DNA of 64,000 bases, from NCBI GenBank assembly GCA_036172245.1, contig JAYWIR010000010.1:2480001-2544000 (forward strand). The letters are read 5' to 3'. Source of the stretch: Raillietiella orientalis. Taxonomy: Eukaryota. Positions 40,150-62,646 of the stretch are shown here, one piece after another. The position numbers were made by a program, and so were the translations under genes. The notes beneath the pieces are model-generated. The model had not been told where the DNA came from. It did not search any database and saw only the letters and a list, made by a program, of their open reading frames with translations. Every line of letters starts with the position of its first letter. Within the stretch, counting starts at the first letter, position 1.

Positions 40150-40349
40150 ATGTCTTTCCGGCTCGAGAGGTGCGTCACCCGGATTTTCCGGGGCATTTAT
40201 TTGAGGATAAAAGTACAAGCAAATGTTCCTGTGGTGAACCGCTTCGTTCACCACGTCATGGGCACTTGGCAGTCACCGGTCGGCAGTCCGGCGAGCTCCG
40301 TTTCCGCAGCGAATGGGACGGGAAAAAGATACAAACGAAAAAGGAAACA

Positions 40350-43663: not shown

Positions 43664-45701
43664 ATGTGGACCAACATGTTCATGGTCGTTGGTTGCATTG
43701 TCTTGTTAACAGCAATCTTGAGAAAACTTATCGAAAGGAAATGGTGTTATTGCAAGAATACTGATCAGATGGATGGACAAGTTGTTCTTATAACTGGTAG
43801 CACATCAGGTCTTGGATGGGCACTGACGAAAGTTGTCGTGAAAAAAGGTGGAAAAGTCTTAATGGCCAGCCGTGATGTTGGAAAAGCAGAGCGCCTTATC
43901 ACCGGGTTCTCACGCAGCCGATTCGCTGGGCAAATGGTATTCTAAACTTGTTTCCTATTCTGTTAGCAATAGTTTATGGCCTACTAAACAGTTGCCGATT
44001 TAGTTTTTAGATTAATGTTTTTTACATTTTTGCCATAATGTCACAGATCAGTAAGGTTACGGCAAATGTTTACCTGCTTTACTGTATTTTCATTTGTTTT
44101 TTATTATATTTTTACGTCGCAGTATTGCATTTTGTCAGTGTCATTTTTGAAGCTTTCCAACTACTTATTGCAAAAATGCACATAACAGTATTACAGGTGT
44201 AATGCTATAGTAGTATAGCTTTTCGTTTGCTGGTGATTAAATCAAATGCCCTTACTGGAGTTTCTCAATTATTAATAGTTACATTCTCGAAATACAGTTT
44301 CTGGATTTTCATTCGTTTTCAGAAACCAATTTATTTGGATTTACTTGATTACCAGTCCATTATCAATGCTGTCCAGCATATTTCTGATTGCCAGCTCAAG
44401 ATTGAATGCCTCATTTTAAATGCTGGCATCTATAAATTACCCAAAGATACTTCAGAAACAGAGAATGGTTTAGAAATTCATTTTGCTAGTAATTATTTTG
44501 GTCACTTCATTCTTACTAATCTTTTACTGAGATGTGAACATCCACCCTCCAAGTAGGTAAGGTGCTTTATTTCTTGGTAATTCAGTATTTTATTTGAATA
44601 TTACATAAATAAGAATGTAAATATGAACAGACTTCCTAAACGTTACACTGTTGATGATGTTTAGGGATTACTAACTGCATATCCTGTAGTCTGTGTGCTT
44701 CTACTGTGATGGTATAATTTATATAAACAAAAATGAAGTGTTTTCATATATGAATGTAGTCCATTTTAAGAAATACTGAGGTATGAACTCAAATCCGATT
44801 TAAAAAGTCTGTATATGTAAACTTATTTTTATGAGAATGTCCAATCAAAAGTTATTCATCTTGACTATTGATAAGGGAACCAATTTAAAGAATACTTTGA
44901 GGTAGATACTGCAGAATTACAAATATATGCAAACGTGGTTTTTTTTTATAAAAATGAGGCATTACTTTAGTGAAACCTCGATATATTTCATAATAAAGTT
45001 TTCTTGGTTATCATAAAGCATGTTAGATTCCACATAATATAAATGCATTTTAAGAAAAGATTGTAACTCTAGGTGCACTGCGATTTTCCCTATGACTATG
45101 TGTTTTTGTGTAGAATTAAAATCATGTTTTCCCAGCTTCATGCTAATGATTTATTTTTCAGAGTTATTATAGTTACATCTTCTTTATTTAAGTATGCTGA
45201 TTTGAGCATAAGTACATTAAGTGTTCCGAGTCATAATGTTGCTGCAACACCGAGAACACATTCAAACATGGCTTATAACAATTCAAAATTTGCTTGCCTA
45301 TTGTTTGCTCGAGAATTAGCTGATAGATTAAAAGAAACTGGCATCAATGTTTATGCAGTCTGTCCTGGATTTGTGTGCACCAATCTTATCAAAAAAGTAT
45401 GGATACAAGAGAGTTTTTGGAAAAAAATTCTGTTTATTCCTGTTTTACTGCTGATGAAGACTCCTTTCCAGGTTTTGTTTAATTTTTAACATTATGATAT
45501 AGTATTTATAATTTATAACAGGGCATCCAGACCATTCTGCACTGTATGTTAGAGAAGAATTTAGTTTCCGGAAATTGTTATTCAAACTGTAATGAATTGC
45601 CGTATCACCAAAAGAATGATGAATTACAGAAAGCACTTTGGACATACACTGAGAATCTGATGCTTGAGAATCCAAAAATTTCAGAGTATATAATGAAATA
45701 A
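43664..45701 (+). CDS. Short-chain dehydrogenase/reductase, retinol dehydrogenase 11-14-like, 330 aa, 4 exons
   Basis: Exons 43664-43936, 44323-44552, 45162-45471, 45522-45701 give one open frame. N-terminal TM anchor, VLITGSTSGLG (TGxxxGxG), LILNAGI, GLEIHFASNYFGHFILTNLLL, VIIVTSS, catalytic YNNSK, VCPGFVCT, GIQTILHC. Confidence 0.93.
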
Positions 45702-46560: not shown

Positions 46561-48069
46561 TCGATTCTTATACGCACCCGTCGCACGTTCTTGAACGGAC
46601 ATACTACCGGTTTCGACAAAAAACTTCCCAGTGGTTGGGAGTGAACAGACTTTGAGCGAAAATCGGTCCTCGTCCTGCTAATCGGTCCTCATGTTCTCAC
46701 GTTCGACACGAATTACTTTGCATGCGTAGGTAAAAGTTAGCGATGCTTCATCTGTGAACATGGAAAATTTGTTTGCACTGAACCCTTCCTTCACTTTTAG
46801 CTAAACTAATAAAATTGAAATGCACTATTATATTCTATACTATTGCTTTTTCAAGACAGCTGAATTTCCTTCACTCCTACTGACGCACCTTCTGACTGTC
46901 ATTCTGCTAAATATCCTGAAATGCCCGTATCGTTTGTTCTTGTCTTCCATTTAAAGAACACAGCATCGTACTCAACCTCGGTAATCTCATGAACAAGTAT
47001 CCCTAGCAACGCAACACCCACTACTCTGAAACCAATTACATCTGAAATTAGCTCCCATTATTAAAATGAGAAATCTGCTCAAAAAGTAAAAATGCGGTCA
47101 TACCACAGTATTTCCAAGAATCTCTTATTTCTAGTCGTTGGGAAATCATGCTTACAAATCGGTTGCAGTCTTGTGTTGGTTTTGCATCCCACTTTTTGAG
47201 GGCCTTATTTTTCAGCTTTCACGGGCCTTTCCGGTTATTTCAGGTGTTTGTAGAGCAATATGGAGGTTGATAGCCGTATGGATTATTATTTCTTCTATTC
47301 ACCTTTCCTCTCAAACCTTCCTGTACTCGCAACTTTGGAAGAATATGTGACGAGACGATCGAAAATGAAATGAGAAAACAGCAGACAAATAAGAGCCGGG
47401 AATGGAAAGAAAGTCGTATTGGAGTCAAAGTGGTAAAAATCTTAAAAGAAGGATCATTTGTTTTGTATGGATTCAACTTGTTCAGCAACACAAATGTTGC
47501 TTTTCTCGTCTCGACGTTTCGGTGTCCTGAAGCACCATTGATGCTGGGGAAGTAGGCAGTGACGGGATTATTGGTGGGTTCCGATTGCTTCCAGGAAGAT
47601 GGCTAACCAACTTTTCACACATCTCGCTCAGAGCTCTGAGTAAATCACACATATTGATCTCACGATTGTTTATTGGTCATACACTATAGGAAAGGAAATA
47701 GAGGATACGTCTAGGTGTTCTTAGGCTCTCCAGGAAGAACTGCAAGTGTAGATCAGGAGATTTGCCCTAATGGCCAAATTAGTGGAAGCACACTGGTCCT
47801 TTACTGTGTACCTAATCCCGAGGCAAGCGGTCGGTTGCGCTGTTGCTGCGTTATCCTGGTTCCATGATGGAAGCCTCCGGATTTTTCCTGAGACAGAAGG
47901 AGCAGATGACCTCCCTTGCTGGAGCAGCATTTCCACTAATGTTTTTGTTTCACAAATGAAGTGCCAGATGATGGCACAAGTCACCAGGGATTCTCCTCCA
48001 TGACCAGTGTCGTTTTTCTTCCTCTCCATTTCATCCTCCATTGGAGGGTGCGATTTGAAGATGGTTTCT

Positions 48070-48465
48070 CCATTAGACCAGTGACCCAACCTGTGCTCGA
48101 GCAGTCTCCTCCGAAGTAGAGTGTGTTGGAGAATACCATTTTCCTTTTCATGCTCTCCATCCGTTGCTCAGGGAACCTTCTGTGCTCTCACTGCTTCTTC
48201 ATTTTCTGGATCCCAGATCCGAGGGATCCTGAGACGATCGCTCTGACTGGTACTCTTTTTATCGTAGATGAGGAGAGTCAGTTCTCCGTAACTTCTTTCC
48301 TTTCTTCTTCTACAACTTTGAGGGAAGGTTCGTGAAGTCAAAGCAGGGTGCAGATTGTTGCTTTCCCGTTAGGCTGGAGCACTGAATCTGGTTTCCAGGA
48401 GAGGCGTCGATAAATGTGAAACCGCTCAAGTCCTTAAATCCGGCTGACTTATTTTCACTGATTTT
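48070..48465 (-). mobile_element. Second 3' fragment of an RLE-type (NeSL/Utopia-like) non-LTR retrotransposon
   Basis: WKPDSVLQ (PD motif), then AIVSGSLGS / WDPENEEAV..MESMKRKMVFSNTL..LEHRLGH with frameshifts. Same C-terminal pattern as the 39.5 kb fragment. Confidence 0.65.
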
Positions 48466-48471
48466 CTTCCT

Positions 48472-49072
48472 CTAATTTACTAATTTCACAAGTATTTTTT
48501 TTAATATTACTTTCTAATTGTATTATTTTTTCTTTATTACTTTCAATTACTGCATGTTGCTTCCTATTTGCTTGTATTAATTGGTCTTTTTCTATTTTTA
48601 GATCATAATGTCTTTTTTCTATATTACATAAAAGTTGATTTGCTTTATCATTAAATTTTTCAACTATATTTTCGCATTTATTTTTTATATCTTGATAATC
48701 ACAATTAAATCTTGATATCTCACTTTCAATGTTTCTGTTTCTATTAATTTTTCCAAGGGGAAAAATTCTAATAACAAAATTTTTAAAAGAATTTATTTTT
48801 TGTCTTTCTAAATTTTTATTAATTCTTTTTTTAAAAAGTTTTAATTTAGTTCGTTATGAATTCAACTGTAATTTTACATTATTAATAGTTTCAAATGCAG
48901 AAGTAAACTCAATATGTTTATCATTAACACCATTACTATTAAGTTCAGATTTTATAGACTTATCAATATCTAATAAATAATTTTGCTCTATAATAACAAC
49001 TTGTTCTTTTAATGTTTCAAAATCATTTTTATCTTCAACTAATCAAAATTGTTTTTCTTTTGGACTTAGCAT
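48472..49072 (-). pseudogene. Mollicute coiled-coil hypothetical protein, disrupted
   Basis: MLSPKEKQF(TGA)LVEDKNDFETLKEQ... in code 4; in-frame TAA near 48856 and a frameshift near the 3' end. Confidence 0.6.
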
Positions 49073-49164
49073 GTTTTTCACTCTTTTTTAAAGGCATAAA
49101 AACCCATTTCCTTTGAAATAAAGCAATGGATTAAAAATTATATACACATTTTACAATGGTATTA

Positions 49165-49935
49165 TATGCTTTTTTTATCTAAAAGCAAGTTAATAACATC
49201 TACAAATTGAAGCAAATTATAATAAAATTCCTTTGCTGAACTCTGTTTTGAAAAATAATTCATTTTATTTCATTCAGCAATTAAATTTTGTTTTAGTAAA
49301 TTTCCAGGTTTAATCTTTGAGAAATTATTACGATATAAATTTACTTTTTGAACAAAACTTAAATATTTATCAACTCTTTTGGGTTCTAAAACCAACATCA
49401 TTTTTTTAGATAATACATTACCATAATCATTAACATTTAAATTAATTTTATTTCAATTTAAAAATTTAATGATTTGTTCTTACATTAATTTTTGTGACTC
49501 AAAAAAATAAATACTTCATTCTTGAACACCTAAAAATTCACGAATTTTTTCTAATTTCTTTCTTGTTTTAACATCAAATTGTGCTATGCTCACTTCAATA
49601 ATGTCGTTTTTAGTATTTTTATCAAACCAAAAAAGCAAATCATCAAGTAATATTTTAATAAATTTTCTTTTTTTACAATAAGGAAAATCATCTCTAATTC
49701 TTTTATGATATTCCAAAATATTCTTACTTGATCAAAGAATTTCTACTCATTTTTTACCTAATAATTTTTCGTTTTTACTATAAAAAATACCATCATAATT
49801 TGAAGTTATGATGTTTTTTTTTATTTTCTTTAAAACTATTTTGAATAAAAAAAAAATGAATTTTGGTTATATCTTCCAAAATTTGGATACTTACTATTTT
49901 TAGGATTTAATTTCATAAAATTTCAAATATGTAAA
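49165..49935 (-). pseudogene. Mollicute hypothetical protein (~250 aa), disrupted
   Basis: Code-4 frame ..YHKRIRDDFPYCKKRKFIKILLDDLLFWFDK..GVQE(TGA)SIYF..; frameshift in the A-tract near 49850 and a TAA near 49481. Family not recognised. Confidence 0.5.
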
Positions 49936-50183
49936 CCTAAATCAATTTTATTCATTTTTATTTCTATCTTTTTCTTTCTTGGATACTTTATTTAATAATT
50001 TAATACCATTTTTTGTGTCTCTTTTATGTTCTTTTTTTGTTCTTGATAAAGGATTATATCTAGGATCTGTACATCAACGAATAAAAATACCAACTGCAAC
50101 TGCAACTAGAAATAATGGAATACCGATTCCTGAACATCTAGAATAAAGTAGACACAAAATGTAACCTTTGTGTTAAAAACACT

Positions 50184-50975
50184 TTAAGGAGGGTGTTTAT
50201 TTTTTGGGATTGGTATTATATTTTCACTAGAAAAAATATTAATTTGACCAAAACTAACATTAGCACCACCAGAATTTTGACCATGAATATCAAAAAATAC
50301 AGTTAAATGTCTTAAATTTGGAACACGAACAGGCATAGTAACAAAATTATATAAATGTTGATTATAAACATCATTATCAATTTTAGCTTTAGAAATATAT
50401 TTAACATTACTGTCATAATCTAAAAAACTAAAAGTAAAATCACCAGTAAATGTCTTAAAACGTTCGAATTCAAAATAAAACATAAAACCTTGAATATAAA
50501 AACTCAACGGTTTACCAATCTCAAAATCTAACTGTGTTTGAAAATTTTCAATAAAATAATTATTTGAAAAAGTTAATAAATTATACTTATCAATAGGTAT
50601 AAAATTATGATTAAACATAATACGTGAAAAAATATCTAATTGATCTTTATCAAACTCATAAACACCAGTTTTTAAATCAATGCCGCAAGGTTTAACACCC
50701 GAGACACCACTAACATGTTGAACAAAATAATCACCTTCACCATTACCAACAAAAGTACCACGAACTAATTTTAAATCTGGTTGGTCAACATCAAAATAGG
50801 CAGAATTTCATGGAATAGTTGCTCAATCATTAAAACTATGATATTTAACATACTTAACCATTTCTTTTTTAATATCATAATTAACAACATTAGGATCATT
50901 TGAAGCAATTAAACTAGTGGGTGCTTGAAAAGAAGTATTTACAACAAAAAACAATTTAGCAAATTTAAATCACAT
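50184..50975 (-). CDS. Putative plectrovirus minor virion/adsorption protein, 263 aa in code 4, possibly C-terminally truncated
   Basis: Open frame M(TGA)FKFAKLFFVVNTSFQAPTSL...IPIPKNKHPP* when TGA=Trp; N-terminal hydrophobic stretch; last gene of the phage module. Function inferred from position only. Confidence 0.55.
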
Positions 50976-50978
50976 AAT

Positions 50979-51169
50979 TATTTACCAAATAAACATTTTA
51001 AAATTCACCATGAACCATAAAACAAAACAAATACAATAAAAAACTGAGTTCCATAAACTACTAAATTTCATAAAATAGTAGTAAAATCATCAACTGGATT
51101 ACCTATAAACATAGTTCAATAATCAACAATATATTGATGTATTTTATTATAAATTTCTAAAACACTCAT
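50979..51169 (-). pseudogene. Small hydrophobic phage ORF, frameshifted near the 3' end
   Basis: MSVLEIYNKIHQYIVDY(TGA)TMFIGNPVDDFTTIL(TGA)NLVVYGTQFFIVFVLF. Confidence 0.5.
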
Positions 51170-51178
51170 ACTTAACAG

Positions 51179-51376
51179 CTACCAAAACAATGACCTAAAA
51201 ACAAATTTAATACTACGATAAATAAAATTAAAAAATACACCTAATACTAACCAAAAAGTCAAATTAAACAAAATGCAAACTTCATTAGTGATATTTGATT
51301 GATTTAAAAATATTTGAATATCTTTACGAGAAAATGTAAAAATAAAATGCAATATACTAACTACAAAATTAGACAT
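51179..51376 (-). CDS. Small hydrophobic phage protein, 65 aa
   Basis: MSNFVVSILHFIF...LFNLTFWLVLGVFFNFIYRSIKFVFRSLFW; AGGTG SD-like motif upstream; TM followed by a basic C-terminus. Confidence 0.55.
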   Translation of the reverse strand: MSNFVVSILHFIFTFSRKDIQIFLNQSNITNEVCILFNLTFWLVLGVFFNFIYRSIKFVFRSLFW

Positions 51377-51384
51377 AATAACAC

Positions 51385-51774
51385 CTACTTAATATACTTA
51401 GGATTATAATAATGTTCATATCCACTAGCAGGAGCAACAGCAGTACCTTTTTGTTTATAAGAATAAGTACCACCTTTATAACATTGAATGGGTGCCACAC
51501 CAGACTCTCCATTATGATAAGCATTAGCAATATCTTTACCAGCACCAATACTGACCACAACAGCAGATTTACCAATAAATTTAACACCATAAAATAATCC
51601 TAGTGTTGGTAACATTAATTCGGGTAAAATAACTCTAAATGCAAATCTAAGCAAAATTAAAAATATCATTAATGTACCCAAGTTAAAACCTAAATCACCA
51701 ATAGGAAAACTAGAAAACTTCATAAAAATTAAAGCAAATAATTGCATAACAGTTGTAATAAAAGGTATAAACAT
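51385..51774 (-). CDS. Phage membrane protein, 129 aa
   Basis: MFIPFITTVMQLFALIFMKFSSFPIGDLGFNLGTLMIFLILLRFAFRVILP...; open in both codes; AGGATG upstream. Confidence 0.55.
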   Translation of the reverse strand: MFIPFITTVMQLFALIFMKFSSFPIGDLGFNLGTLMIFLILLRFAFRVILPELMLPTLGLFYGVKFIGKSAVVVSIGAGKDIANAYHNGESGVAPIQCYKGGTYSYKQKGTAVAPASGYEHYYNPKYIK

Positions 51775-51786
51775 AATTTCACATCC

Positions 51787-52040
51787 TAATGTCTTGTAAA
51801 TCTAAATAATCCCAAAATTAAGTAAAATACAAAACTAACATTTATTAAAGAAAGAATAGGCAAAGGTAAAGTGTATAAACTATCATAAAAAAATGACTAA
51901 ATAAAAAGTGTCACAGTATGTAACCCAGCAAAAGAACTTAAATACTGCATATAAATAGTTTGTACCAAAATATTAACAAACGGTAAAAGTTTACCTAATA
52001 AAGGTAAAACAAAAACCAAATAAAAAAATAACTTTACCAT
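51787..52040 (-). pseudogene. Hydrophobic phage ORF with an internal stop
   Basis: MVKLFFYLVFVLPLLGKLLPFVNILVQ...TLFI*SFFYDSLYTLPLPILSLINVSFVFYLILGLFRFTRH; AAGGAAG SD upstream. Confidence 0.5.
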
Positions 52041-52062
52041 TTGCTTACTTCCTTTCTAATTA

Positions 52063-52267
52063 CTAATGTGTTCCATGAATAATATGTCTCGCAAATTGCT
52101 TGATAAACGCTAATACCATAAATACAATTGAAATTAACACTGGTCAATTTGTAAGTGCCACCATCGCCAGTTGTAAATACTCAACCAAAAATATAAGTAA
52201 AAGCATTTAATAATTGTTGTCCAACACCACCAATCATATTTAATAATGTTAATAATCCAGTATGCAT
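52063..52267 (-). pseudogene. Candidate major coat protein-like ORF, frameshifted
   Basis: Strong SD (AAAGGGGGTG); MHTGLLTLLNMIGGVGQQLLNAFTYIFG(TGA)VF.. shifts to ..LTN(TGA)PVLISIVFMVLAFIKQFARHIIHGTH*. Amphipathic N-term, one TM and basic tail, as in filamentous phage coat proteins. Confidence 0.45.
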
Positions 52268-52268
52268 A

Positions 52269-52520
52269 TTAATCACCCCCTTTCTCTAATTCTTTTTGTT
52301 GTTTTTCCAATTCTAATTTACGTTTTTTCTTTTCAAAATCTCTACGACAAAAAGTACAATCAGGGTCATTTTCTTTTTCCTTTACATGTTTTTTGTGTCT
52401 AAATTTCTGCATACCCTCATGTATTCAATTACGACAAAATCAAAGTATAAGGCAAAAGCCACCAATATATAATGCATATTTTATAATCCCCTTAAAATCC
52501 ACTTTAATCACCAACTCCAT
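52269..52520 (-). CDS. Phage protein with one TM, a CxxC motif and a charged tail, up to 83 aa in code 4
   Basis: ..KGIIKYALYIGGFCLIL(TGA)FCRN(TGA)IHEG..DPDCTFCRRDFEKKKRKLELEKQQKELEKGGD*. True start may be a downstream GTG. Confidence 0.5.
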
Positions 52521-52547
52521 ATTTTTCTTTTAATTTTTTTAAAACTT

Positions 52548-52814
52548 TTACATATACAACAAACCTAAGCCTAAAAATGTCTTTTTATACCTAATAATAA
52601 CTTTATTTTTAGTAGTAGATCTTTGATTAATATTCCATGTATCAATTGCTAACTTTTTACTAAATAACAAAGAATTAATAGAACCTAAAATTGGGTCTTT
52701 TAAATATTGACCATAATAAGCACTAACTCCAACCATTGCACTTAAAGGACTTAATTCAGTTCTTAAAATTTTAGTTAAAGTATAATTACTAGTTTGCTCT
52801 AATTCATTAGACAT
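52548..52814 (-). CDS. Phage hypothetical protein, 88 aa
   Basis: TAAGGAG SD upstream of ATG; MSNELEQTSNYTLTKILRTELSPLSAMVGVS... Confidence 0.55.
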   Translation of the reverse strand: MSNELEQTSNYTLTKILRTELSPLSAMVGVSAYYGQYLKDPILGSINSLLFSKKLAIDTWNINQRSTTKNKVIIRYKKTFLGLGLLYM

Positions 52815-53117
52815 AAATAAAACTCCTTACTTTTTATTAAAAAGGAGCATATTTAAACTTTTTTGTGTACTTTGCTCCCATGTTATACAAATTAGTATAA
52901 ATATGCTCCCTATTTAGTTTTTTTAATTTTCTTTTTGTTGTAATTGCCCTTTTTGTTTAACCAAAGCAATATTTAAAATATAATTTGGACAATAATACTG
53001 TTTAGTACATAAATTTTGTAAAACTTTTAGGACAAATAACTTGACCACAAAGTTCACATATATAAATTGATAAATGAAAAAATTGCTGACAAACACAATT
53101 ATTAATTTTTGACATAA

Positions 53118-53258
53118 TTAATTTTTCTTTTCTATAACTTTAAAATTGTTATTTAATTCTTCTTGTTTTTTTAAAAATTGATCAACTCTATTCATCATAC
53201 ATTTATCACACATATATTGAGTTAATCATAATCTCTTACTACAATATTTACATCCCAT
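53118..53258 (-). CDS. Small zinc-ribbon-like phage protein (CxxC..CxxC), ~46 aa in code 4
   Basis: MGCKYCSKRL(TGA)LTQYMCDKCMMNRVDQFLKKQEELNNNFKVIEKKN*. Confidence 0.5.
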
Positions 53259-53547
53259 TACTTTTTCTTTTCTACAATAGACTTAATATCAACAATTTTA
53301 CCTTCTCATGAAATTTCAACATCATAATAAAGGCCAATTTCAATTGTCATTTTAGACAATTTTATTGATAAATCACTATTAGCAAGAACTCATTTGTCCT
53401 TTGACTTCTCACCAGTAGCAACTTTTATCTGTTTCATAAAACGGCGAAAACGTAAGAACAGTATAATTATTGTCCTTACCTTTATTGTCTTTAATAATTT
53501 TGTCAGTTTGTCAATCTGATAGTTGACATAAAAAATTTTGCACAAAT
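53248..53547 (-). pseudogene. Putative ssDNA-binding-protein-sized phage ORF, frameshifted
   Basis: GGAGG SD; ..IIKDNKGKDNNYTVLT.. then ..KQIKVATGEKSKDK(TGA)VLANSDLSIKLSKMTIEIGLYYDVEIS(TGA)EGKIVDIK. Beta-rich and immediately downstream of rep, like gene V of inoviruses. Function inferred. Confidence 0.4.
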
Positions 53548-53795
53548 GCTTAACCTCCCGATATTTAAGTTACTAAATGGAACTAAGTTAGGATAACAAA
53601 AGAATCTTAATTATAAACATACATAAAATAAAAAAAATGTCAATAAACATAACAAAATAGATATTAGTGAAAATATCGGGTAATTACTAATATCCACTAC
53701 CATTATATATATACATAATCGGATAATTCGTGGGTATTAGTGGATATTACAATATACAATACAAATAAAACACTCGTAATATATACACAAGTGTT

Positions 53796-54727
53796 TTATT
53801 TAAAATTAATGTAGAACTTTTCTTTCTCAACAAATATTTTTTCAACTTTATTACCAAAAAATTTATCTAAAAAAGTTAAAAAAATTTCTTTACAAGTAGT
53901 CCATGGCTCAAATTGCTTAACTGCATTTCTAAAACGTACACTATCAATTGAAATATAATCATTATAATCAATAAAACCATCATTTCTAATAGTAGTATCA
54001 AAACTACCACAAAAAGCATAGTACTACCGAAAGTAACAATTTTTTTTCTTAAAAAGCATTGAATGTATTGCCTTAATTGAAGCGTCAATTGAACGTTGGT
54101 ACAACATTACTTTTTGACCCTTAATAACCTTAGGTCAAGTACGAGAAAAAGCATATGCACGAACACCTAAATCAAACATATTTTGAGATTTCATATTATT
54201 TTGAACTTTAACAACATACTTTGCCAAATACTTAACTACATTTTCATTAGTACCTTTTTGAACAACTCTTACATCATTAATGCTCATCATTGTGGCAACA
54301 TACTTTTATGTATTTTTCTATTAAAAAGTATATGAAAATGTACTGCTCCACGTTTTTGATGTTCATAAACATACAGATATTTTAAATTACCTAAATATTT
54401 TGCACGTTTAGGATTATTTCATCACTTTTTCAAACGCTTAAAAAATAATGAAATATGATATTTTGCCAATTAAATATCTTTCATATTTTCAGCATAAGTA
54501 AGGGTAAAAAAACTTAAAACTTTACTATCATAAAAATTATGATAAGCACGATGAATAAGATTAGTCTTAGTACGAATAGTGCTATTTCCTAATTTCTTAT
54601 CATTAATTCCTAAATTTTTTATACCTTGTCCATTACGTTTATTATTTAAAATTGCTTCCATAGGAAAAACTACATTTTTAAGCTATCAACCAGAAAATGT
54701 TTTTTTAATATAAAAATTTTCTTCCAT
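53796..54727 (-). pseudogene. rep: Rolling-circle replication initiator (HUH endonuclease), disrupted
   Basis: Motif I SFFTLTY, motif II YEHQKRGAVHFHILF, motif III KYLAKYVVK; GGGAG SD; TAA at 54470 and several frameshifts. Confidence 0.85.
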
Positions 54728-55096
54728 ATATAAAACTCCCAATATTTATTATTAATCTTATATACTTCATCATTAATATAATACCATAAATTAAAAATAA
54801 AAATAAAAACTCAAGGTGAATTCTGTTACTTAATCTAGATAATTGTACAATATATATACTAATTAGTGAATTATAAATAATAAAATTTATAAATTTAAAT
54901 ATTTTTTTCTTCATGTAATAGTAACGTATTTGATAATTCATACCGGTATATCCTAGAAATTAAAATCATTCCATTACCTTTTTATTAATATTTGTATATA
55001 CATATTGATGTTTTATGTGTTAATTAATAATTTTTAATTTACTTAACAGTTCTTTTACTATTTATTATATATTATTATTTAGTATATATTATAGTG

Positions 55097-55198
55097 TATC
55101 TAATTATCTATATTTAATATAGATAATTAGATAATAATTCGAGTATATACCGGTATATTTAATATAGATAATTAGATAATAATTCTAGTATATACCGG
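55097..55198. repeat. Putative plasmid replication origin: two 45-bp tandem repeats overlapping a 37-bp palindrome
   Basis: 55109-55153 and 55154-55198 are identical except one g/t; 55097-55133 has 18-bp inverted arms; directly upstream of the Rep_3 gene. Confidence 0.75.
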
Positions 55199-55240
55199 TA
55201 TATATGTTACAATTATATATATGTTTAAAGGGGTAAGATT

Positions 55241-56116
55241 ATGGCAAAATGTTTAGTTAACAAACAAGAGAATAAATTTATTAAAAAATCAAATGTGATT
55301 GTTCGTGCAGTAACAAATGATTGTGCTGGGATGATGACTCAAAGGTTATTTAATTTTACCATTTTAAATTCTTTACATAAATTAGATTGAAATAAACAAG
55401 AAAAGCATAAATATTTGGAATGTTGAATTACTGATTTTTCTAAATATTACGGTATTGCTGAAAGACAACTTTATAAGGTTATTCATAAAAACAAAGAAAT
55501 GACAGTAATTCAAAAAGGAATAGAAATTTTAACTACTTATAAATTTTTTTTATTTGATGAAAATAGTGGAGATTCTAAATTTGTGAATTTATTTTTAGAA
55601 GGTGGAAATACACAAGGAAAAATTTGTTTAGAAATTCATCAAAGTTTAGTAGCAGAACATTATTTAAATTTAAAATCTAATTAAACAAATATTTATTTAC
55701 CTTATACAAAAACTGTCACAAGTAAACATTCAATGAGCTTATGTGAATATTTACGTATTTATTTATATATGAATGCAAAAACCAAGAGAACGCCAACTTA
55801 TCAGCGTATTTGAGATTTCGAACTTGCTAAAATTTTAAATTAAAGTTTAAACAGTAGTTATTTTAAAAATACTAGTATTTTAAAAAAACAAATTTTAGAA
55901 CTAGTTAAAAAAGATTTGTTAAAAAGTGATATTATTTTTACTTATGAATTAATAAAAATTGGTAGAAAATATAGGAAAATAATTTTAAATACACATTTAG
56001 ATTTAAAAAAATTTAATGCTCAAAATCCTGAAATTGAAAAAATCATAACTAAAAAAGAAAATGTAAAGAAAGAAAAATCTTTGCAATTTTTTACTAATAA
56101 GATTAAAAAATTTTAA
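55241..56116 (+). pseudogene. Plasmid replication initiator, Rep_3/RepB family, two in-frame stops
   Basis: IKKSNVIVRA, YLNLKSN*TNIYL..TSKHSMSLCEYL, FTYELIKIGRKYRKI; one frame throughout with TGA=Trp and TAA at 55682 and 55841; AAGGGG SD. Confidence 0.8.
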
Positions 56117-56272
56117 AATAATTGAAAAACCAATTTTAAGTGAAGATGAAGTAAAAAAGATTATGCAAGATTTTGATAATCATTAAATTATTAGGTAATA
56201 ATATTTATGTAATAGTGTGTATTAATGTTTACAAATGTGTATTATAATTAAAAATTGAATGTTGGTATAATA

Positions 56273-57055
56273 ATGAAAATGATTAGTTTTTGTAACAGTA
56301 AAGGTGGAGTTGGTAAAACAATATTAACAATTAATGTTGCTCAAATATTAGCTCAAATCGGTAAAAGAATTTTATTATTTGACTTTGACCCACAGGCAAA
56401 TTTAACAAATACCTTATTAGATAATCATATTGATAAATGGAATATCTAAATGAATTTTAGGTGCAGATAAAGATATTTTAATTGAAATAATTGTAGAAAG
56501 GGACTTTATCAGGGATTTTTTTAGTACCTTCATATTCAAAAATGGTTTTAGAGACAAATAATATTGTTTTGAATCAACCAAATTTTGAGTTTAGATTTAA
56601 AATGAATTTAGAAGAAATTAAAAATACATTGAATATTAAATTTCATCATATTTTTTTTTGATACACACCCATCTATGAATACAGTTTTATTAAATGTTTT
56701 ATTAGCTTCAGAAGAAATAATTGTTCCAACTGAGCTACATTCATATAGTTTTGAAGGTATTACTACTATGTTTAAACCTTATTTAGAAACAATAAATATT
56801 TCTAGAAAAATGGGAATGAATATAAAAAATAATATGAATTATTATGCTTTCAATAAAATTTTAAAAAATAAATTACATCAAAGTGTTTTTGAACTTATTT
56901 CTCAAAATGAAATAGGTACAAAATTGTTAAATACACATATTCCTCTATCTGCTACTAAGCAAAAGGAAACAATGTTACTTAAATTTGCATCAATAACTGA
57001 AAAGAATCCAATTTATAAAGTAGTTATGGAATTAAATAACAAAGGAGTTATTTAA
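56273..57055 (+). pseudogene. parA: ParA/Soj partition ATPase, frameshifted
   Basis: Deviant Walker A NSKGGVGKT, LLFDFDPQANLT, Walker B region IFFDTHPS, ASEEIIVP; frame breaks around 56445-56520. Confidence 0.88.
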
Positions 57056-57057
57056 TT

Positions 57058-57336
57058 ATGTATAACAAATTACTTGCATCACTGAAAAGCAAAATTGATA
57101 CTAGTGCTAGTCAAATACCAAAAGAAGAGAATATTTTTGAAATAAAAAAAGAAATAATTCAATCCGAAACCAAAGATGAAACAAAAATCATTAGAAAAAA
57201 TATTTCAATAACTTTAAAACAGCAGATGATGATAGATGAAATGTCAAAAAATAATTATGAAATCAATTTATCATCTATAGCCAGACGTGAAATTGAAAAG
57301 ATATATAATGAATTTAAGTTTAAAAAAAATAATTAA
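57058..57336 (+). CDS. Small ParA partner with a C-terminal ribbon-helix-helix-like region, 92 aa
   Basis: AAAGGAG SD; starts 2 nt after parA; IIRKNISIT (strand) LKQQMMIDEMSK (helix) NLSSIARREIEK (helix). Layout of type Ib partition systems. Confidence 0.6.
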   Translation: MYNKLLASLKSKIDTSASQIPKEENIFEIKKEIIQSETKDETKIIRKNISITLKQQMMIDEMSKNNYEINLSSIARREIEKIYNEFKFKKNN

Positions 57337-57349
57337 TTTAAAAATAAAT

Positions 57350-57369
57350 ACCCAACATTAAAGTTGGGC
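57350..57369 (+). terminator. Short hairpin after the par operon, possible terminator
   Basis: cccaac-attaaa-gttggg just after the stop of the RHH gene. No U-tract on the plus strand. Confidence 0.3.
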
Positions 57370-57434
57370 AGTGCGAGGGATATACCCCCTTACACAGTAT
57401 TATCTGTACTACCTTACAAGAAAGCGAACTTTAT

Positions 57435-57810
57435 ATGCAACAAAAATGCTGATGAAAGTTAAGAAACGGTATGGGAGTTCGTATTCAACTCCCTAATGAT
57501 ATTGACAAAGAAACGGGTAAACAAAGGTATCGTCCAGCAATAGTTATTAAGTCTTATTCAAGCCATGTAAAAGTGAATTAATGACAACTGAATTAAGTAG
57601 TCATGATTACTTTAAAATTAAAATTGATAATCAAATTCAATACATAAGGCCAATTTATTTTAGAACAATATCTTTTGAACAAGTTAATAGAATTTGACTA
57701 GATAGAAATAATAATGTCATTATAATAAATAAGACAAATAAATTTTTTAAAAACTCGGTGCAATGGAGTTTAAAGAAATTGTTGATGAAGAACTGTGTTT
57801 TTTTTAAAAA
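57435..57810 (+). pseudogene. PemK/MazF-like toxin, frameshifted
   Basis: TVWEFVFN / PNDIDKETGKQRYRPAIVIKSY..VKV / LMTTEL..IYFRTISFEQV..; RPxxVI and downstream TT pattern of PemK-family RNases across two frameshifts. Confidence 0.55.
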
Positions 57811-58040
57811 AAAATAACATTTCTTACTTAAATATTAATGTATAAATAAAACTCTTACTTAGATAAGTAAACAAAATGAATATTTTACTTTCATGTAGTA
57901 ATATTGACGCCTAATTTTAAGTTATCATTTCTAACAACTTTTTTATTTATGGTGACATTATAAAAATATGTTAGTATGTAAATAAGAATAGATTTTACTA
58001 AGTTATCGTTCGGATGTGATAAATATAGAAAATAATAGGT

Positions 58041-58345
58041 ATGGATTAAATTATATTGATATTGCAGAATATTTTTATAATAATATAGAGTATATTAATG
58101 ATTTAAAATTACAAAAACTTATGTTTTTTGCTTATGTTGAATATTACAAAAAATATAAAAAAGAATTATTTGATAATTTTGAAGCATGAGTTTATGGTCC
58201 TGTATTACCAGAATTATATCATAATTTTCATAAAGTTTTATTAAATAAAGAGTATAATGAAGAAATTATTAATGAGAAAAAAGATGTTAAAAGAATTTTA
58301 GATGATATTATTAAAAAGTATGGTAAAAAAGATGCTTTTGAATTT
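58041..58345 (+). pseudogene. Panacea-domain (DUF4065) antitoxin, 5' frameshift and 3' truncation
   Basis: YIDIAEYF..INDLKLQKLMFFAY..LFDNFEA(TGA)VYGPVLPELY..IIKKYGKKDAFE, then abrupt join to the IS256 3' region. Confidence 0.82.
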
Positions 58346-59617
58346 TGAATTTTAATTTTGAATGGGCATTGTTCATTTTTTTTGTTATATTTTCAATTGC
58401 TAAATAAAATATTTTGAAAACTGCCATATCATTAGAAAAAAATTTTTATTTCTGATAACTTTTCGTAACTGACTATTAATTGATTCAATGGCATTTATTA
58501 TATAATTTACTTTTTTGATTTCTGCAGGATAGTTAATAAAAACCATTAAATTTTCTCAATTTTTATATCAAGATTTAGCAATTTGGGGATTTTGTTTAGT
58601 TCACTTACTTTCAAATGATTCTAAAGCTTGCATTGCTTGCTCTTATTACATGCGCTATAAATTGGTTTTAAATCTGCCACTAGAGATTTTCAATGCTTGT
58701 GTGAAACATATTTTAAACTGTTTCTTATTTGATGAACTATACATAATTGATGTTCTGTTTTAGGATAAACTGTTTGTATTGCATCTGACATGCCTGTTAA
58801 ATTATCACTACAAGCAATAAGAATACCATTTAAACCACGATTTTCATTTCTGTGAAATTAGCTAACGAAAACTTGACACCTTCATTTTCACTAATTCATA
58901 AACCTAAAACATCTTTTTTTTACCTTCTAAATCAACACCTAATGCTATATAAACAGATTTGTTAATAATGCGTGTATTTTGTCGTACTTTAACTACTATG
59001 CAATCAAAATAAACAATTGGATAGACACTATCTAATGGTCGATTTTACCATTCTTTGACATCATCAATAATATCATCAGTAATTTGACTAATAACACTTT
59101 CACTAATATCAGCACCATGATATAACTCTTGCAATTGCAATCTAATATTTGATAAAGTCATACCTTTTGCATATAATGAAAGAACTTGCTGATCAAAACC
59201 ATCAAATCTTCTTTGTCTTTTTGCAATTATTATTGGTTCAAAATTACTATTACGATCTCTTAATACATCAATTTCAATTTTGCCTTGTTGTGTTATTATT
59301 TTTTTGATGTTGTACCATTACGAACATTATCACTGTTACTACGTTGATTTCTATTATCTCCTAAAGAACTTTGTATTTCAGAATTTAACATTTTTTCTAC
59401 TAAAAGTTTTGTTAATTTTTTATATAGACCTCCTTTTTTTAAATACTGTTGTTAAATCTTCAGTATTTTCTAATAATAAATCCACTGCTTGTGATATTGG
59501 ACCATTATTATTGATATTTTGTTTTTTAGACATATGTAACTCGCTCTTTCTAGTTTTATTATAGAACTAATTAAACGTAGTTATTTTTGTAAGTTACACA
59601 GATTACTAAACATTACC
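58345..59617 (-). mobile_element. IS256-family insertion sequence, transposase disrupted, right end missing
   Basis: ATG at 59533; [74 protein letters not shown]; left end GGTAATGTTTAGTAATCTGTGTAAC at 59617; several stops and frameshifts. Confidence 0.92.
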
Positions 59618-59824
59618 TACTAGCAAGAAAAATTTTTATTAATCGTATAAAATTATCACTTCTAATGAGCTCTGTACAACTTGTTCCATTTGTGCTCATT
59701 ACTAAAAAAATAAAATCTCAATACGAAACTTGTCTTAAAACAACAGTATTATTTATTGATAATTGTTTGGCATTATTTTGCTTGGTAATCATATAAAAAA
59801 CCTCTCATCTTCGTTATGATTTTA

Positions 59825-60098
59825 ATAGTGAATTTAACTTTGAAGATGTCCATCTGTTGCATTAGTTTCATCTTTATTCTTAGCATTAGCACCTGCTATT
59901 AATGATGTTTTTAATGCTTTCAGTTTTTTTGATTTTCATCAATTTTGGCAATTAATATTCTCAACTGATTTTTTTGTTCATCAATATGCATGGCATTGTC
60001 TTTACTTTTTTTCTTTGCAAAAACCTAACAGTATAAGTTGTTAAAGCACTAATAATAATGGTAACTGATGACAAAATCGCTGCTATAAAATCTTCCAT
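59825..60098 (-). pseudogene. Mollicute hypothetical protein with an N-terminal TM and coiled coil, frameshifted
   Basis: MEDFIAAILSSVTIIISALTTYTVRFLQRKKVKDNAMHIDEQKNQLRILIAK... Confidence 0.4.
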
Positions 60099-60284
60099 GT
60101 ATTTTGCTTTAACAAAAAAAATGTGTTTTTATACAAAACACACTACAGAAGTATTTGTAATGTATTATGTGCCTTTATAAGATATAAAGATTAATATTTT
60201 ACATCTCTAATATAATAGAAAGCACAAAAAATAGCAAGAGTAAAATAATTATTTTGCTGACAATCTTAAACTTGTCCATTATTT

Positions 60285-60812
60285 TGCTTTATTATTAGCA
60301 CCAAAAGAGATAATTTTTGTGATGCCATAGTTTTGACTGCTTCTTGGCCAGCATTAACCAAATTTACGAGCATCAAAACTAGTAGGATTAACACTAAATC
60401 ATTATTTAAGGGCATTAGCATAAGCAAGTTTTAAATCAGTACCAATATTAATTTTACTAATACCGAAACGAATTGCTTTTTTGCAAATCAGCAAGTGGCA
60501 CTTATGGCACTGGCACTATGTAAAACTAATGGAATGTTAATAGCAGCGCGAAGCGCGGATAATAATGAAAATTGTAAGGCAACTTTGCCACGATAAAGAC
60601 CGTGAGTAGTGGTGCCAATAGCAATCGCCGGGGCATCAACTTTCGTTTGTTCGACAAACTTTATTGCTTCATCAACATTAGTATAGCCTTTATTATCACT
60701 ATTACGGTGATCTTCTTTCCCGCCAACATGACCAACTTCAACCCCTTTACTATGAGCATATTTAACAACTGTTTGTGTTGCTTTGACATTAGCAACAAAG
60801 TGAACAGTTGCC
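60285..60812 (-). pseudogene. Class II fructose/tagatose-bisphosphate aldolase, C-terminal half, disrupted
   Basis: NVKATQTVVKYAHSKGVEV-GHVGGKED..YTNVDEAIKFVEQTKVDAPAIAIGTTTHGLY..IPLVLHSAS / KAIRFGISKINIGTDLK. N-terminal half absent at the junction; EAE motif deleted; stops and frameshifts. Confidence 0.9.
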
Positions 60813-61806
60813 AAAAGAGAAGCAGAGAAAAATGAGAGACTTTACGGTTTCTGCTGGAAAGTACAAGAACACCAAAATGTCCAACAAGCAGAAAGTAGTT
60901 GGAGTATAGAAGCACTCCTTGGAATGACTGCAGAACAGCTCTGAGAACACATCGAGTATATCCTCGAGGCTGGAAAACTGGGGACGGGGCCCTTGGTGGA
61001 AGTGCCAGTGTTTGCAGAAACTGATGACTTTTCCAAACTCGGACAAAGAGGAGAAGTCTACACGTTGGCAATGGAAAGTTTTCAACGCCACAGTGGAGGA
61101 GCAGAAAAACAGAGGACTCGATCGATTTTTCGCGAAGAAGTATGTAGGGGTGATCAAGGACGAGAACGTCTGGATGGGGAGCGCGGGACAAACGTGTGCA
61201 AAGAGGAGGCTTACCTCCGGAGGAAGCTATCACGAAGATAAAGGGACGCTCGAGAGGAAAGTTCCATGAAGTGCGAAGCGCGCGATCCATTCAGCGTTTC
61301 CCTTGGAAACCGATCCGCCGGCTTGCACTGATGGCCAGAGAGAAGCAGCAACTGGGGAATCTGAATCGAGCTTGGCCGTCCAATCTAACAGGCATCTCCA
61401 AGAAGGGCCTCTATCCTGCAGAGTGGTTTTGCGATCCGCAAGGGGGGAGGAGGAGGAAATAGGAAAGGAATGCCTGGAGCCCGGATTGATTGCCGCCGTT
61501 CAAGCTGGGAAGGAAAATCGTATCGAAGAAACCATGCGGAAATCACTGATTTTGTAAATTCCTTGTTCATAGCAGTAGTGGTAGTAAAAGGAAACAACAA
61601 CAAAAAAAAAAAGACTATAGTCTCTTGGGACCGAAGTAAACGAAAAGACTCGTTTGAAACCATTTTGGTTTTAGAGAAATGTGGGCGCGTGACGGTGGCT
61701 CCGTGGAGCGGAAACACGCAGAAGCCATTCAATTGTTCGCCGGGCGATTGTTGGACTTCGTGGTTCACACGCGTGGAAGTCAGCTGGAAAAAATTCGCCT
61801 GTGGGG

Positions 61807-62646
61807 ATGAGCTCTAAACAAAATCGTGGAGCAAACACCAAAAAGCGCGTCCGCAAAAAAACGCACAAGGAGAACTCATTCCTGGAATCGCAGGAAACCC
61901 TGAAATTCGTCGGGAATTCCAATTCATCCCAGCTTTCCGAAACGTATTCGTTCATCCAGAGGAAGCTCCACGAAACCAAATACCTTTCGAATAAGATACA
62001 GGAGCACGGAACGCTTTCTCCTGTGACCAGCAGTAGCTTCCTCATCGCTTCTCTGAAGGAGCAGACGCAGCAGATGTTTGCCCTTTTGCTCAATGAAAGC
62101 GATGCTCCGGGCGACGACGGTGACATCAAGAAGAACGCTCCTGGCAAGAAGCGAAGTCTGCCCGCGCAAAGGGAGAAGCTGCAGACCGGGAAACTGACGA
62201 AGTCTGAAGCATCGGACTGCACGGATATCACGCTGACGCAGTTGAATGCGTTGCGTGGGAACACTGCCTTCAGCGGTCACGGTGCGAACGGTCCCGGTAA
62301 GAAGGGTAGGAATGGGAAAAGAGGAAGGAAGCAAAACTCTGCCGATGACACGTATCTGGTTCCTTTTTCACCAAGTTCTCAAACGGACTGCAAATCTGAT
62401 GATGTTCCCTGCGTGCCGGGAAACGATGCCGAGTGGCAGTTTCCAGACACTCTCTTTCCAAATTTAATAACTGAAGAATGGATGCAATCCGACCTTCCCT
62501 GCGTTCATGCTGAAGGCTCAACCGAAGCAGCCAACGCAGACAGCAGCCAAGGATATCACTTTCAGCTGGGACCAGAATCCAATGTGCTCCCGTGGCTGGC
62601 AGAATCGTACGCTCTGCTCTATCAGAACGAACAGTCCACAGTGTAG
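61807..62646 (+). CDS. Uncharacterised intronless ORF, 279 aa
   Basis: ATG-initiated 840-nt frame in moderate-GC DNA, followed by AT-rich simple repeats; basic NLS-like clusters (KKRVRKK, KKGRNGKRGRK) and an acidic/aromatic C-terminus. No family recognised. Confidence 0.5.
   Translation: MSSKQNRGANTKKRVRKKTHKENSFLESQETLKFVGNSNSSQLSETYSFIQRKLHETKYLSNKIQEHGTLSPVTSSSFLIASLKEQTQQMFALLLNESDAPGDDGDIKKNAPGKKRSLPAQREKLQTGKLTKSEASDCTDITLTQLNALRGNTAFSGHGANGPGKKGRNGKRGRKQNSADDTYLVPFSPSSQTDCKSDDVPCVPGNDAEWQFPDTLFPNLITEEWMQSDLPCVHAEGSTEAANADSSQGYHFQLGPESNVLPWLAESYALLYQNEQSTV

Follow-up and report, generated by a model that had tools for sequence, protein, structure and literature searches.

Spiroplasma mobile DNA between host-type flanks of an arthropod contig, a probable fossil of nuclear insertion

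The window, i.e., the whole stretch of 64,000 nucleotides analysed here, contains a 12.3-kb block with sharp edges (48,450/48,470-60,812) made up of Spiroplasma ixodetis-type mobile DNA and the 3' part of a class II aldolase gene, in which TGA is read as tryptophan. The block is bacterial in origin and mosaic in structure, its lesions are real, and it is embedded without gaps in host-type DNA on both sides. We consider it probable that it represents a real nuclear insertion of Spiroplasma DNA that has by now become a fossil.

Extent of the block and its flanks

The sequence-only reading had described a sharply bounded, very AT-rich block between eukaryotic sequences, and both parts of this description hold. 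The GC content of the block (48,471-60,812) is 0.241 versus 0.396 in 40,000-48,470 and 0.457 in 60,813-64,000 (i.e., ca. 24% against 40-46% in the flanks), and all 1-kb bins across 49,001-60,000 remain at 0.20-0.26. Bins of 100 nt place the switch in 48,400-48,500 and 60,800-60,900. At the left junction (48450..48470) host-type sequence passes into AT-rich Spiroplasma-type sequence as GC drops from 0.48 through 0.35 to 0.21, and at the right junction (60805..60815), located within the aldolase reading frame, it rises from 0.40 to 0.53 and aldolase homology stops (60,799-60,814). The whole window is free of Ns, neither joint shows a shared repeat or an adapter motif, and no host transposon or host sequence was found inside the block.

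Two intron-bearing host genes sit 3-13 kb to the left of the block, in agreement with their earlier identification. The first, eIF3e (34999..37266, plus strand), has five coding blocks separated by short introns, is recognised by Pfam (PCI and EIF3E_C) and tblastn, and clusters with arthropods in a tree; its best identity is 75.9%, to Limulus, and the proteins listed included nothing near-identical. The second, a short-chain dehydrogenase (SDR; 43490..45489, plus strand), has three exons, with Pfam adh_short positions 1-43, 54-121, and 142-191 found in three separate ORFs. The tetranucleotide signature of the right flank correlates at 0.69-0.79 with four left host segments and at 0.11-0.21 with the block, and it is from composition only that the host nature of this flank is read; its 279-aa ORF (61808..62646, plus strand; with a (TG)n/G run and a T run behind it) is an orphan, with no match in Pfam and none among 1.84 billion representatives.

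A mosaic of Spiroplasma plasmid and phage modules

Each of the 10 plasmid records that match 48,470-55,200 belongs to Spiroplasma. For 54,900-60,812 there are 120 matching records, of which 57, including all of the top 12, come from this genus. The mobile parts share 84-91% DNA identity with plasmids and chromosomal copies of the S. ixodetis clade, which bears out the Spiroplasma donor proposed before, and the same modules, in the same local order, are found in live S. ixodetis replicons (Y32 pSIXOD1 and pSIXOD5, sAp269 pSAP_1, and the sAtri plasmids). No genome exceeded 91% identity among the 398 Mycoplasmatales genomes scored at 1-2 candidates per genome (3 more were unscored), and exact copies of the block ORFs were found in the protein collection for none of eight.

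The genes of the left end are on the minus strand. Two coiled-coil ORF fragments of 133 and 77 aa (48455..49087; ORF lists), in whose region a 29-nt tandem repeat occupies 48,492-48,548, have no known relatives, with a weak, sub-threshold match in Pfam and none in PHROG. Next to them lies a pseudogene of a 257-260-aa hypothetical Spiroplasma plasmid protein (49177..49955; tblastn with psAtri3 and pSHM_1 proteins, 52-57% identity) that belongs to a conjugation-like cluster in Spiroplasma plasmids and is here interrupted by a frameshift near 49,854 and an in-frame TAA at 49,480, and then the remnant of a gene for a 793-aa plasmid protein, reduced to its final 57 codons (49957..50127; tblastn, residues 737-793).

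The plectrovirus-like part, also on the minus strand, consists of two modules. Module A (50198..52544; protein alignments) has 84-91% DNA identity to copies in seven Spiroplasma loci; its 350-aa ORF is cut after residue 261 at 50,198, where homology to all seven loci ends, its small ORFs of 63, 65, 129, and 77 aa remain open, and a 68-aa ORF has one frameshift. A deletion scar follows (52545..52563), placed by locus coordinates on both sides in six related copies, with 20 nt where these copies have 0.67-1.4 kb; it takes residues 86-271 of a 271-aa ORF, of which tblastn reaches residues 1-85 only. Module B (52564..54834) is 87% identical to two chromosomal copies in a single genome and includes a pseudogene of an HUH rolling-circle Rep (53,913-54,730, minus strand; Pfam REP_ORF2-G2P, phrog_3419, and alignment to the SVTS2 Rep) with the motif HFHIL, three in-frame stops (54,685, 54,472, and 54,026), and one frameshift. 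The small phage ORFs reach up to 97% protein identity to Y32.

On the plus strand a plasmid replicon is recognisable. Origin-like repeats (55055..55203; repeat search and TRF), i.e., two 45-nt direct repeats (98% identical, one base apart) and a 25-nt inverted repeat, lie directly upstream of a Rep_3-type initiator pseudogene, a position that suggests that these repeats served as iterons. The initiator itself (55241..56083; 58% identity to the psAtri3 Rep) has two in-frame TAA codons, at 55,682 and 55,841. In the ParA/Soj pseudogene (56273..57052; Pfam AAA_31/CbiA in two pieces, 86.6% identical in DNA to psm2 of S. melliferum) three indels (2 nt lost once and 1 nt gained twice, one of these gains within a T run) put 56,435-56,651 out of frame, and 3' of it a 92-aa ORF (57058..57336, plus strand; 87% aa identity to the ParA neighbour in psm2) is still open. 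A 159-aa Spiroplasma plasmid protein is represented by a pseudogene (57450..57814, plus strand; tblastn in two frames) whose frame shifts once, at about 57,570. It precedes a SocA/Panacea-domain gene (58016..58345, plus strand; Pfam SocA_Panacea, E = 2.7e-12; phrog_1281), whose 3' end is supplanted by an IS256 copy, with IS256 homology beginning at 58,346.

This IS256-family element (58346..59617, minus strand; Pfam Transposase_mut in two pieces) has 88-91% DNA identity to multi-copy elements and a heavily broken transposase, the longest open frame being 90 aa versus 260-404 aa in six Spiroplasma copies. Beyond it, an AT-rich stretch with short ORFs only (59636..60284; ORF list) has no match among the plasmids. 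The block ends with the class II fructose-bisphosphate aldolase pseudogene (60285..60812, minus strand; Pfam F_bP_aldolase, profile positions 108-213 of 277), which retains residues 109-281 only, its 5' part having been severed by the right junction. It shares 57-59% aa identity with the 281-aa gene of two other genomes, has lost four codons, shifts frame near 60,500, and contains in-frame TAA codons at 60,404 and 60,356.

A Pfam search of the block translated with code 4 returned the identities first assigned to the HUH Rep, ParA, Panacea, IS256, and aldolase. That of Rep_3 is carried by the 58%-identical Spiroplasma Rep with Rep3_N and Rep3_C, whereas the fragment itself has no Pfam match, and the PemK assignment found no support, the gene at 57,450-57,814 and its intact 159-aa Spiroplasma homologue both being without a Pfam family at E <= 0.01. 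TGA codons within tblastn matches align with W of the Spiroplasma homologue in 24 of 36 cases, as expected from the proposed reading as tryptophan, and the remaining 12 fall mostly in out-of-frame read-through. Of the 16 start codons, 6 have a Shine-Dalgarno-like 4-mer in front of them, versus 5.9% of random 17-nt segments of the block, so that the description of the genes as led by such sites is partly borne out.

Decay, constraint and age

All nine genes with intact relatives of at least 200 aa are broken, i.e., truncated, frameshifted or stopped (the 793-aa and 260-aa proteins, the 350-aa and 271-aa phage ORFs, the phage Rep, Rep_3, ParA, the IS256 transposase, and the aldolase). Nonsense codons sit opposite Y, K, L or Q of the homologues, each equivalent to one base change, and two of the three ParA indels lie outside homopolymers. 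Because several of the lesions are such single-base nonsense changes or indels outside homopolymers, they are true mutations and not read errors, in line with the earlier view that general sequencing error is unlikely.

Window-private changes are distributed evenly among the three codon positions, whereas those among live Spiroplasma copies lean to third positions: 17:18:26 versus 43:20:88 among six live copies for IS256 (p = 0.015), 20:24:13 versus 102:87:163 for the phage ORFs (p = 0.002), and p = 0.0008 for the two pooled. Constraint on the window lineage is thus relaxed. Of 1,196 columns, 65 differ privately in the IS256 copy of the window, a figure that takes in the unrooted stem branch, and 7-8 indels are private to it as well, whereas the live copies have 5-14 differences each. 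The decay may have taken place in the host, as originally envisaged, or already in the donor, as live plasmids also carry broken genes: the Rep of a live S. ixodetis Y32 plasmid is split into three pieces and the IS256 copies of a live sAp269 plasmid are broken or fragmentary. Decay by itself therefore does not locate the DNA in the nucleus.

The old age once attributed to the insert found no clear support. Private divergence is only about 2-5%, the identity of the phage part to its relatives falls within the relatives' own range, and in three phage segments another copy is more diverged than that of the window (with 21 private differences in the window versus 63 in one related locus, and 7 versus 25 in another). 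Window-private AT>GC and GC>AT changes number 53:51, versus 137:86 in live copies (Fisher p = 0.09, in the opposite direction), and these changes show no GC drift toward host composition. It is conceivable, although in our view unlikely, that a real nuclear insertion took place recently and that essentially all of the damage pre-existed in a junk-rich plasmid or chromosome of the donor. Such a history would fit the few private columns in conserved phage ORFs (3/189, 5/216, and 7/233), the single base separating the 45-nt origin repeats, the lack of visible GC drift and host insertions, and the pseudogenes of live relatives. However, none of the 6-7 related copies has the 50,198 break or the 52,544/52,564 deletion, the window-private changes are unconstrained, and a replicon with dead Rep_3 and ParA would hardly be maintained as a plasmid by living cells. 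These objections do not date the damage relative to the transfer, and if the insertion were recent and the damage made in the donor, the block would not be an "old" fossil and would say little about past infection.

Origin of the block and known systems

For a fossil nuclear insertion, which we favour, we postulate that a piece of an S. ixodetis-type Spiroplasma, mostly mobile DNA (plasmid replicon, plectrovirus-like prophage, toxin-antitoxin-like pair, and IS256) with the tail of an aldolase gene, may have been joined to an arthropod host chromosome by breakage and, probably, end-joining at arbitrary points, one break falling within the aldolase, and that the joints would be present in the germline DNA of the animal. 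The insert would have no function in the host: none of its large genes is intact, it uses another code (TGA = Trp), and its changes ignore frames; it would gather substitutions, small indels, and deletions regardless of reading frames, part of this decay presumably postdating the transfer. Wolbachia insertions in the nuclear genomes of arthropods and nematodes are likewise kb to Mb of germline symbiont DNA, mostly non-functional and decaying; unlike them, the present block comes from another donor phylum, and its TGA = Trp code makes nuclear expression even less likely.

We regard it as improbable that the contig is an assembly chimera or contaminated, i.e., that a degraded mobile-rich region or large plasmid of a live, co-sequenced Spiroplasma was misjoined between host stretches. 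Live S. ixodetis-clade replicons do bear broken Rep and IS256 copies together with the same phage-like modules, the block shows neither host insertions nor GC drift, and its small phage ORFs are still open and closely similar to those of Y32. Two independent false joints would nevertheless be required in one contig without N, neither of them marked by a shared repeat or adapter, and nothing closer than 91% was seen among the genomes scored. In contrast to the live modules, moreover, the window has a private truncation and a private deletion of about 0.7-1.4 kb, eukaryotic flanks, and dead Rep, Rep_3, and ParA; the latter two genes and the aldolase are intact in the live plasmids and genomes compared, here all nine large genes are broken, and the changes of the window lineage disregard codon position. 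That part of the insert has been domesticated and functions in the host is very improbable: several small ORFs (63-129 aa and 92 aa) are still open and some tick cassettes are transcribed (PMC11617991), but these ORFs contain TGA aligned with Trp, i.e., stops for a nuclear ribosome, no eukaryotic gene structure is visible in the insert, and their window-private changes show no third-position enrichment.

Events of this kind have already been published, as Spiroplasma DNA in Ixodes (PMC11617991) and ant (PMC13320244) genomes. According to the former report (Baede et al. 2024), Ixodes ricinus and I. inopinatus carry in their nuclear genomes S. ixodetis "cassettes" that are kb-sized (14.6 kb for cassette C), lie within host contigs, share 70-90% identity with the same references (chromosomes and plasmids of sHm, sAtri, and Y32), and are mosaic, each piece having its own homology pattern. 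Unlike these, the present block lies in a host other than Ixodes, as seen from eIF3e, and is one unbroken stretch, whereas tick sequence interrupts the tick cassettes. In ants, 37 of 497 HGT loci were assigned to Spiroplasma/Mycoplasma (PMC13320244), again a transfer from a Mollicute into the nucleus of an arthropod, but the notable cases described there are conserved, expressed single genes (MurNAc etherase), whereas the block is multi-gene mobile DNA without an intact large gene. Under the synteny criterion published for telling HGT candidates from contaminants, as worded in PMC7003083, the block qualifies as an HGT candidate.

Borders, flanks and donor of the AT-rich block

Judging from its sequence, the AT-rich block of the window (from ~48,450/48,470 to 60,812) is probably a nuclear insert of Spiroplasma DNA. 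The sequence-only reading had described it as sharply bounded, and this is borne out by its composition: GC is 0.20-0.26 in the 1-kb bins of 49,001-60,000, amounts to 0.241 over 48,471-60,812 as compared with 0.396 in the left flank (40,000-48,470) and 0.457 in the right flank (60,813-64,000), and in 100-nt bins switches within 48,400-48,500 and 60,800-60,900. The use of TGA as tryptophan that it had proposed also holds, as 24 of the 36 TGA codons lying within tblastn matches are aligned with Trp of Spiroplasma homologues. Its further claim that the genes are led by Shine-Dalgarno (SD) motifs stands for some starts, SD-like 4-mers being present ahead of 6 of 16 (background, 5.9%), and fails for the remainder, which have none. 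Searches for tRNAs and Rfam families gave no match, and none of eight block ORFs was matched exactly in the protein collection.

The window contains no N, and the block and both host-type flanks are therefore part of one gap-free contig. The left flank carries an eIF3e gene (five coding blocks, 34,999-37,266) and a short-chain dehydrogenase (SDR) gene of three exons, a protein search with which gave no match. In a tree of 23 named animal sequences, from which insects, crustaceans and ticks are missing, the spliced eIF3e clusters with Limulus and Strigamia (support 99/95), and its highest identity within this sample is 75.9%, to Limulus; no near-identical protein was present among the 120 matches listed. 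By this grouping, coupled with the lack of a near-identical protein in that list, the host is an arthropod to which that collection offers no close relative. The right flank has a 279-aa ORF (61,808-62,646) that forms part of a 317-aa open frame; a (TG)n/G run and T runs come after it, and the ORF has no Pfam family and no match among 1.84 billion protein representatives. The tetranucleotide signature of this flank correlates with those of four left host segments at r = 0.69-0.79, and with that of the block at 0.11-0.21. The block and its flanks share no repeats with one another or with other parts of the window, there is no target-site duplication, and the joints are free of adapter motifs (weak evidence). 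An assembly chimera with Spiroplasma DNA would require two independent false joints within a gap-free contig, and we consider it improbable. The block, moreover, displays the synteny that separates HGT candidates from contaminants, as laid out in PMC7003083.

The Spiroplasma donor proposed earlier is supported by plasmid, phage and chromosome matches at 68-91% identity. All ten plasmid records matching the left half of the block are from Spiroplasma, as are 57 of the 120 matching the right half, among them the entire top 12 (led by S. ixodetis sAp269 at 85.7%). Phage matches are confined to the Spiroplasma plectroviruses SVTS2 and SVGII3 (66-68% across Rep), and the best genome matches reach 87-91% in a scoring of 398 Mycoplasmatales genomes, which left out three genomes and took one to two candidates per genome. 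The class II aldolase at the right end is 57-59% identical in protein to a gene of two ~1-Mb genomes (G211 and G142) with MreB, which we take to be a marker of Spiroplasma among code-4 Mollicutes, and only 35-37% identical to the aldolase-like counterpart in G042, G062, G013 and G051, the four genomes in which the phage modules recur. The mobile and the metabolic parts of the insert thus point to different relatives. Given that the aldolase relatives are unlike those of the phage modules, either the donor paired ixodetis-type mobile DNA with a gene type that is absent from those four genomes or the block is a mosaic. A pattern scan of genome contigs for aldolase relatives gave a best identity of 50%, with none from Spiroplasma, a word-based protein search found a single match (41%), and the Atlas returned only generic aldolase clusters (0.85-0.87).

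Anatomy and lesions of the block

Comparison with Spiroplasma loci divides the block into pieces, each with its own set of relatives, and Pfam searches read with code 4 recognize a Rep fragment of REP_ORF2-G2P (HUH) type, two pieces of ParA, Panacea, two pieces of an IS256-type transposase and a class II aldolase. The leftmost piece (48,455-50,197) is made of plasmid gene fragments, i.e., a gene for a 260-aa hypothetical protein, with a single frameshift and a single stop, and the 3'-terminal 57 codons of that for a 793-aa protein. Two plectrovirus-like modules come next (50,198-52,544 and 52,564-54,834), with 84-91% identity to copies in Spiroplasma chromosomes and S. ixodetis Y32 plasmids. 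The second contains the HUH Rep, which is of plectrovirus type (PF23343 REP_ORF2-G2P, E = 1.1e-10; phrog_3419), has 53% and 41% identity with the Rep of SVTS2 over two frames, and is broken by three stops and one frameshift. A complete Plectroviridae element was ruled out, with a 350-aa ORF cut at residue 261 and a 271-aa ORF reduced to 85 residues: the former ends at 50,198, where the homology of all seven relatives is lost, and at the deletion in the latter the window has 20 nt in place of the 0.67-1.4 kb of six relatives.

A plasmid replicon (54,835-57,336) follows, with 45-nt direct repeats, a Rep_3-type initiator, ParA and a 92-aa ORF. The two repeats (55,109-55,198, within 55,055-55,203) differ by one base, and are located just upstream of the Rep_3 pseudogene, and a 25-nt inverted repeat with 96% complementarity overlaps them; by position they look like candidate iterons of the plasmid origin. 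The initiator fragment has no Pfam match of its own and is 58% identical to the Rep of the sAtri plasmid psAtri3, which bears Rep3_N and Rep3_C; two TAA codons interrupt it. ParA has a ParA/Soj deviant Walker A P-loop domain (AAA_31, E = 1.1e-16; CbiA, E = 7.4e-16), its gene being frameshifted by one 2-nt deletion and two 1-nt insertions. Beyond the replicon lie a gene of the 159-aa family and a Panacea gene (57,433-58,345). The former (57,450-57,814) had been named PemK, an assignment that finds no support, as neither the window gene nor its intact 159-aa homologue has a PemK/MazF or any other Pfam family at E <= 0.01. The latter encodes a SocA/Panacea antitoxin domain (PF13274, E = 2.7e-12, profile positions 1-102 of 113), and its 3' end has been replaced by an IS256 copy (58,346-59,617) with Transposase_mut in two fragments (E = 4e-11 and 8e-12) and a longest open frame of 90 aa. 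A stretch without match (59,636-60,284) precedes the aldolase (60,285-60,812; residues 109-281 of 281), the 5' part of which is removed by the right junction. A full-length F_bP_aldolase was likewise ruled out, one frame covering only profile positions 108-213, with stops and a frameshift.

That the recognizable genes are broken, as the sequence-only reading had it, applies to all nine genes with intact relatives of at least 200 aa, each being truncated, frameshifted or stopped: four are truncated or deleted (those of the 793-aa protein, the 350-aa ORF, the 271-aa ORF and the aldolase) and the other five are hit by stops or frameshifts (the 260-aa gene, phage Rep, Rep_3, ParA and the IS256 transposase). 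The nonsense codons correspond to Y, K, L or Q in homologues, a single base change away, and two of the three ParA indels fall outside homopolymers; the lesions are thus mutations and not sequencing errors, which had already been considered unlikely. Small ORFs (63-129 aa) are still open, and the block shows no sign of a working gene.

Relaxed constraint and age

Over 1,196 ungapped columns, 65 differences are private to the IS256 copy of the window (changes present in it and absent from the compared Spiroplasma copies), which also has 7-8 private indels; six Spiroplasma copies have 5-14 differences and 0-1 indels each. By codon position, the window differences are distributed 17:18:26 (uniform, p = 0.30) and those of the live copies 43:20:88 (contrast, p = 0.015). 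In four phage ORFs, window-private changes number 20:24:13 vs 102:87:163 in relatives (p = 0.002), and the contrast for IS256 and phage ORFs pooled has p = 0.0008. Because the window-private changes, unlike those of live copies, are not biased to third positions, these sequence comparisons support relaxed constraint in the window lineage.

Several features, however, speak against reading the block simply as an ancient fossil whose decay took place in the host. The IS256 comparison has no root; copies other than that of the window are the most diverged in three phage segments, and the identities of the window lie inside the relatives' own range; and no drift of window-private changes to host GC is apparent (AT>GC:GC>AT 53:51 vs 137:86 in live copies, p = 0.09). 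The private divergence of ~2-5% indicates some time since the split from the sampled relatives, a time that is neither datable nor assignable to the host phase. Of the old, neutrally decaying insert proposed at the outset, the relaxed constraint is thus retained, and the age finds no counterpart in GC drift or divergence. The living donor clade provides a further objection: among live S. ixodetis plasmids, the Rep of pSIXOD1 from strain Y32 is annotated in three pieces and pSAP_1 of sAp269 carries several IS256 fragments, so that pseudogenes are common in this clade.

Proposed route of transfer, known inserts and host surroundings

Based on the anatomy of the block and on the usual course of symbiont-to-host transfers, we postulate that DNA set free by a germline-associated Spiroplasma was joined into a broken chromosome. 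This DNA would probably have come from a large plasmid or a mobile-DNA-rich chromosomal region, and the breakpoints would be arbitrary, one of them lying inside the aldolase gene. Owing to TGA at conserved Trp codons, expression of block proteins by the nuclear system would be impossible, and the stretch would then drift. A more specific reading, which we regard as doubtful, sees in the insert a germline fossil, now fixed, of extrachromosomal mobile DNA (a plectrovirus-plasmid-IS mosaic) from an unsampled or extinct Spiroplasma lineage that paired ixodetis-type elements with an aldolase type absent from the ixodetis-like genomes searched. If true, it would constitute an endogenous remnant of a single-stranded-DNA bacteriophage in an animal chromosome, and a datable trace of an earlier infection in an arthropod lineage to which protein databases offer no close relative.

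Spiroplasma nuclear inserts as such are already known from ticks (PMC11617991) and ants (PMC13320244). The former source describes S. ixodetis cassettes in nuclear contigs of Ixodes ricinus and Ixodes inopinatus that are mosaic, of kilobase size and in some cases transcribed (Baede et al., PMC11617991), and whose identity to the sHm, sAtri and Y32 references also matched by the block is 70-90%; unlike for those cassettes, the host here is other than Ixodes, given that no near-identical eIF3e occurs among the 120 matches listed. The latter, a survey of 163 ant genomes, attributes 37 of its 497 HGT loci to Spiroplasma/Mycoplasma (PMC13320244). None of the papers listed in literature searches has a title or abstract on plectrovirus-derived DNA in an animal genome, and the supplementary tables of PMC11617991 could well include pieces of this kind. 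Nothing in the block points to a new mechanism. Provided that the junctions are genuine, one more arthropod, beyond Ixodes and ants, joins the short list of hosts with nuclear Spiroplasma DNA, and the captured DNA can be symbiont plasmid and phage rather than core genes. Such inserts mislead PCR and metagenomic screens for Spiroplasma, as host DNA yields false positives, and are usable as markers of past infection.

Two further features lie in the rest of the window. A 17-kb stretch (6,000-23,000) of GC 0.60-0.69, with a CpG o/e of 0.94 and long open stretches in each of the six frames, adjoins host DNA of GC 0.28-0.45, the candidates being a GC-rich isochore, a repeat or a gene cluster. A GC island (0.547) at 40,000-41,000, set in AT-richer host DNA, has overlapping ORFs of 120-180 aa (no Pfam match for the one searched) and may be a transposon remnant.
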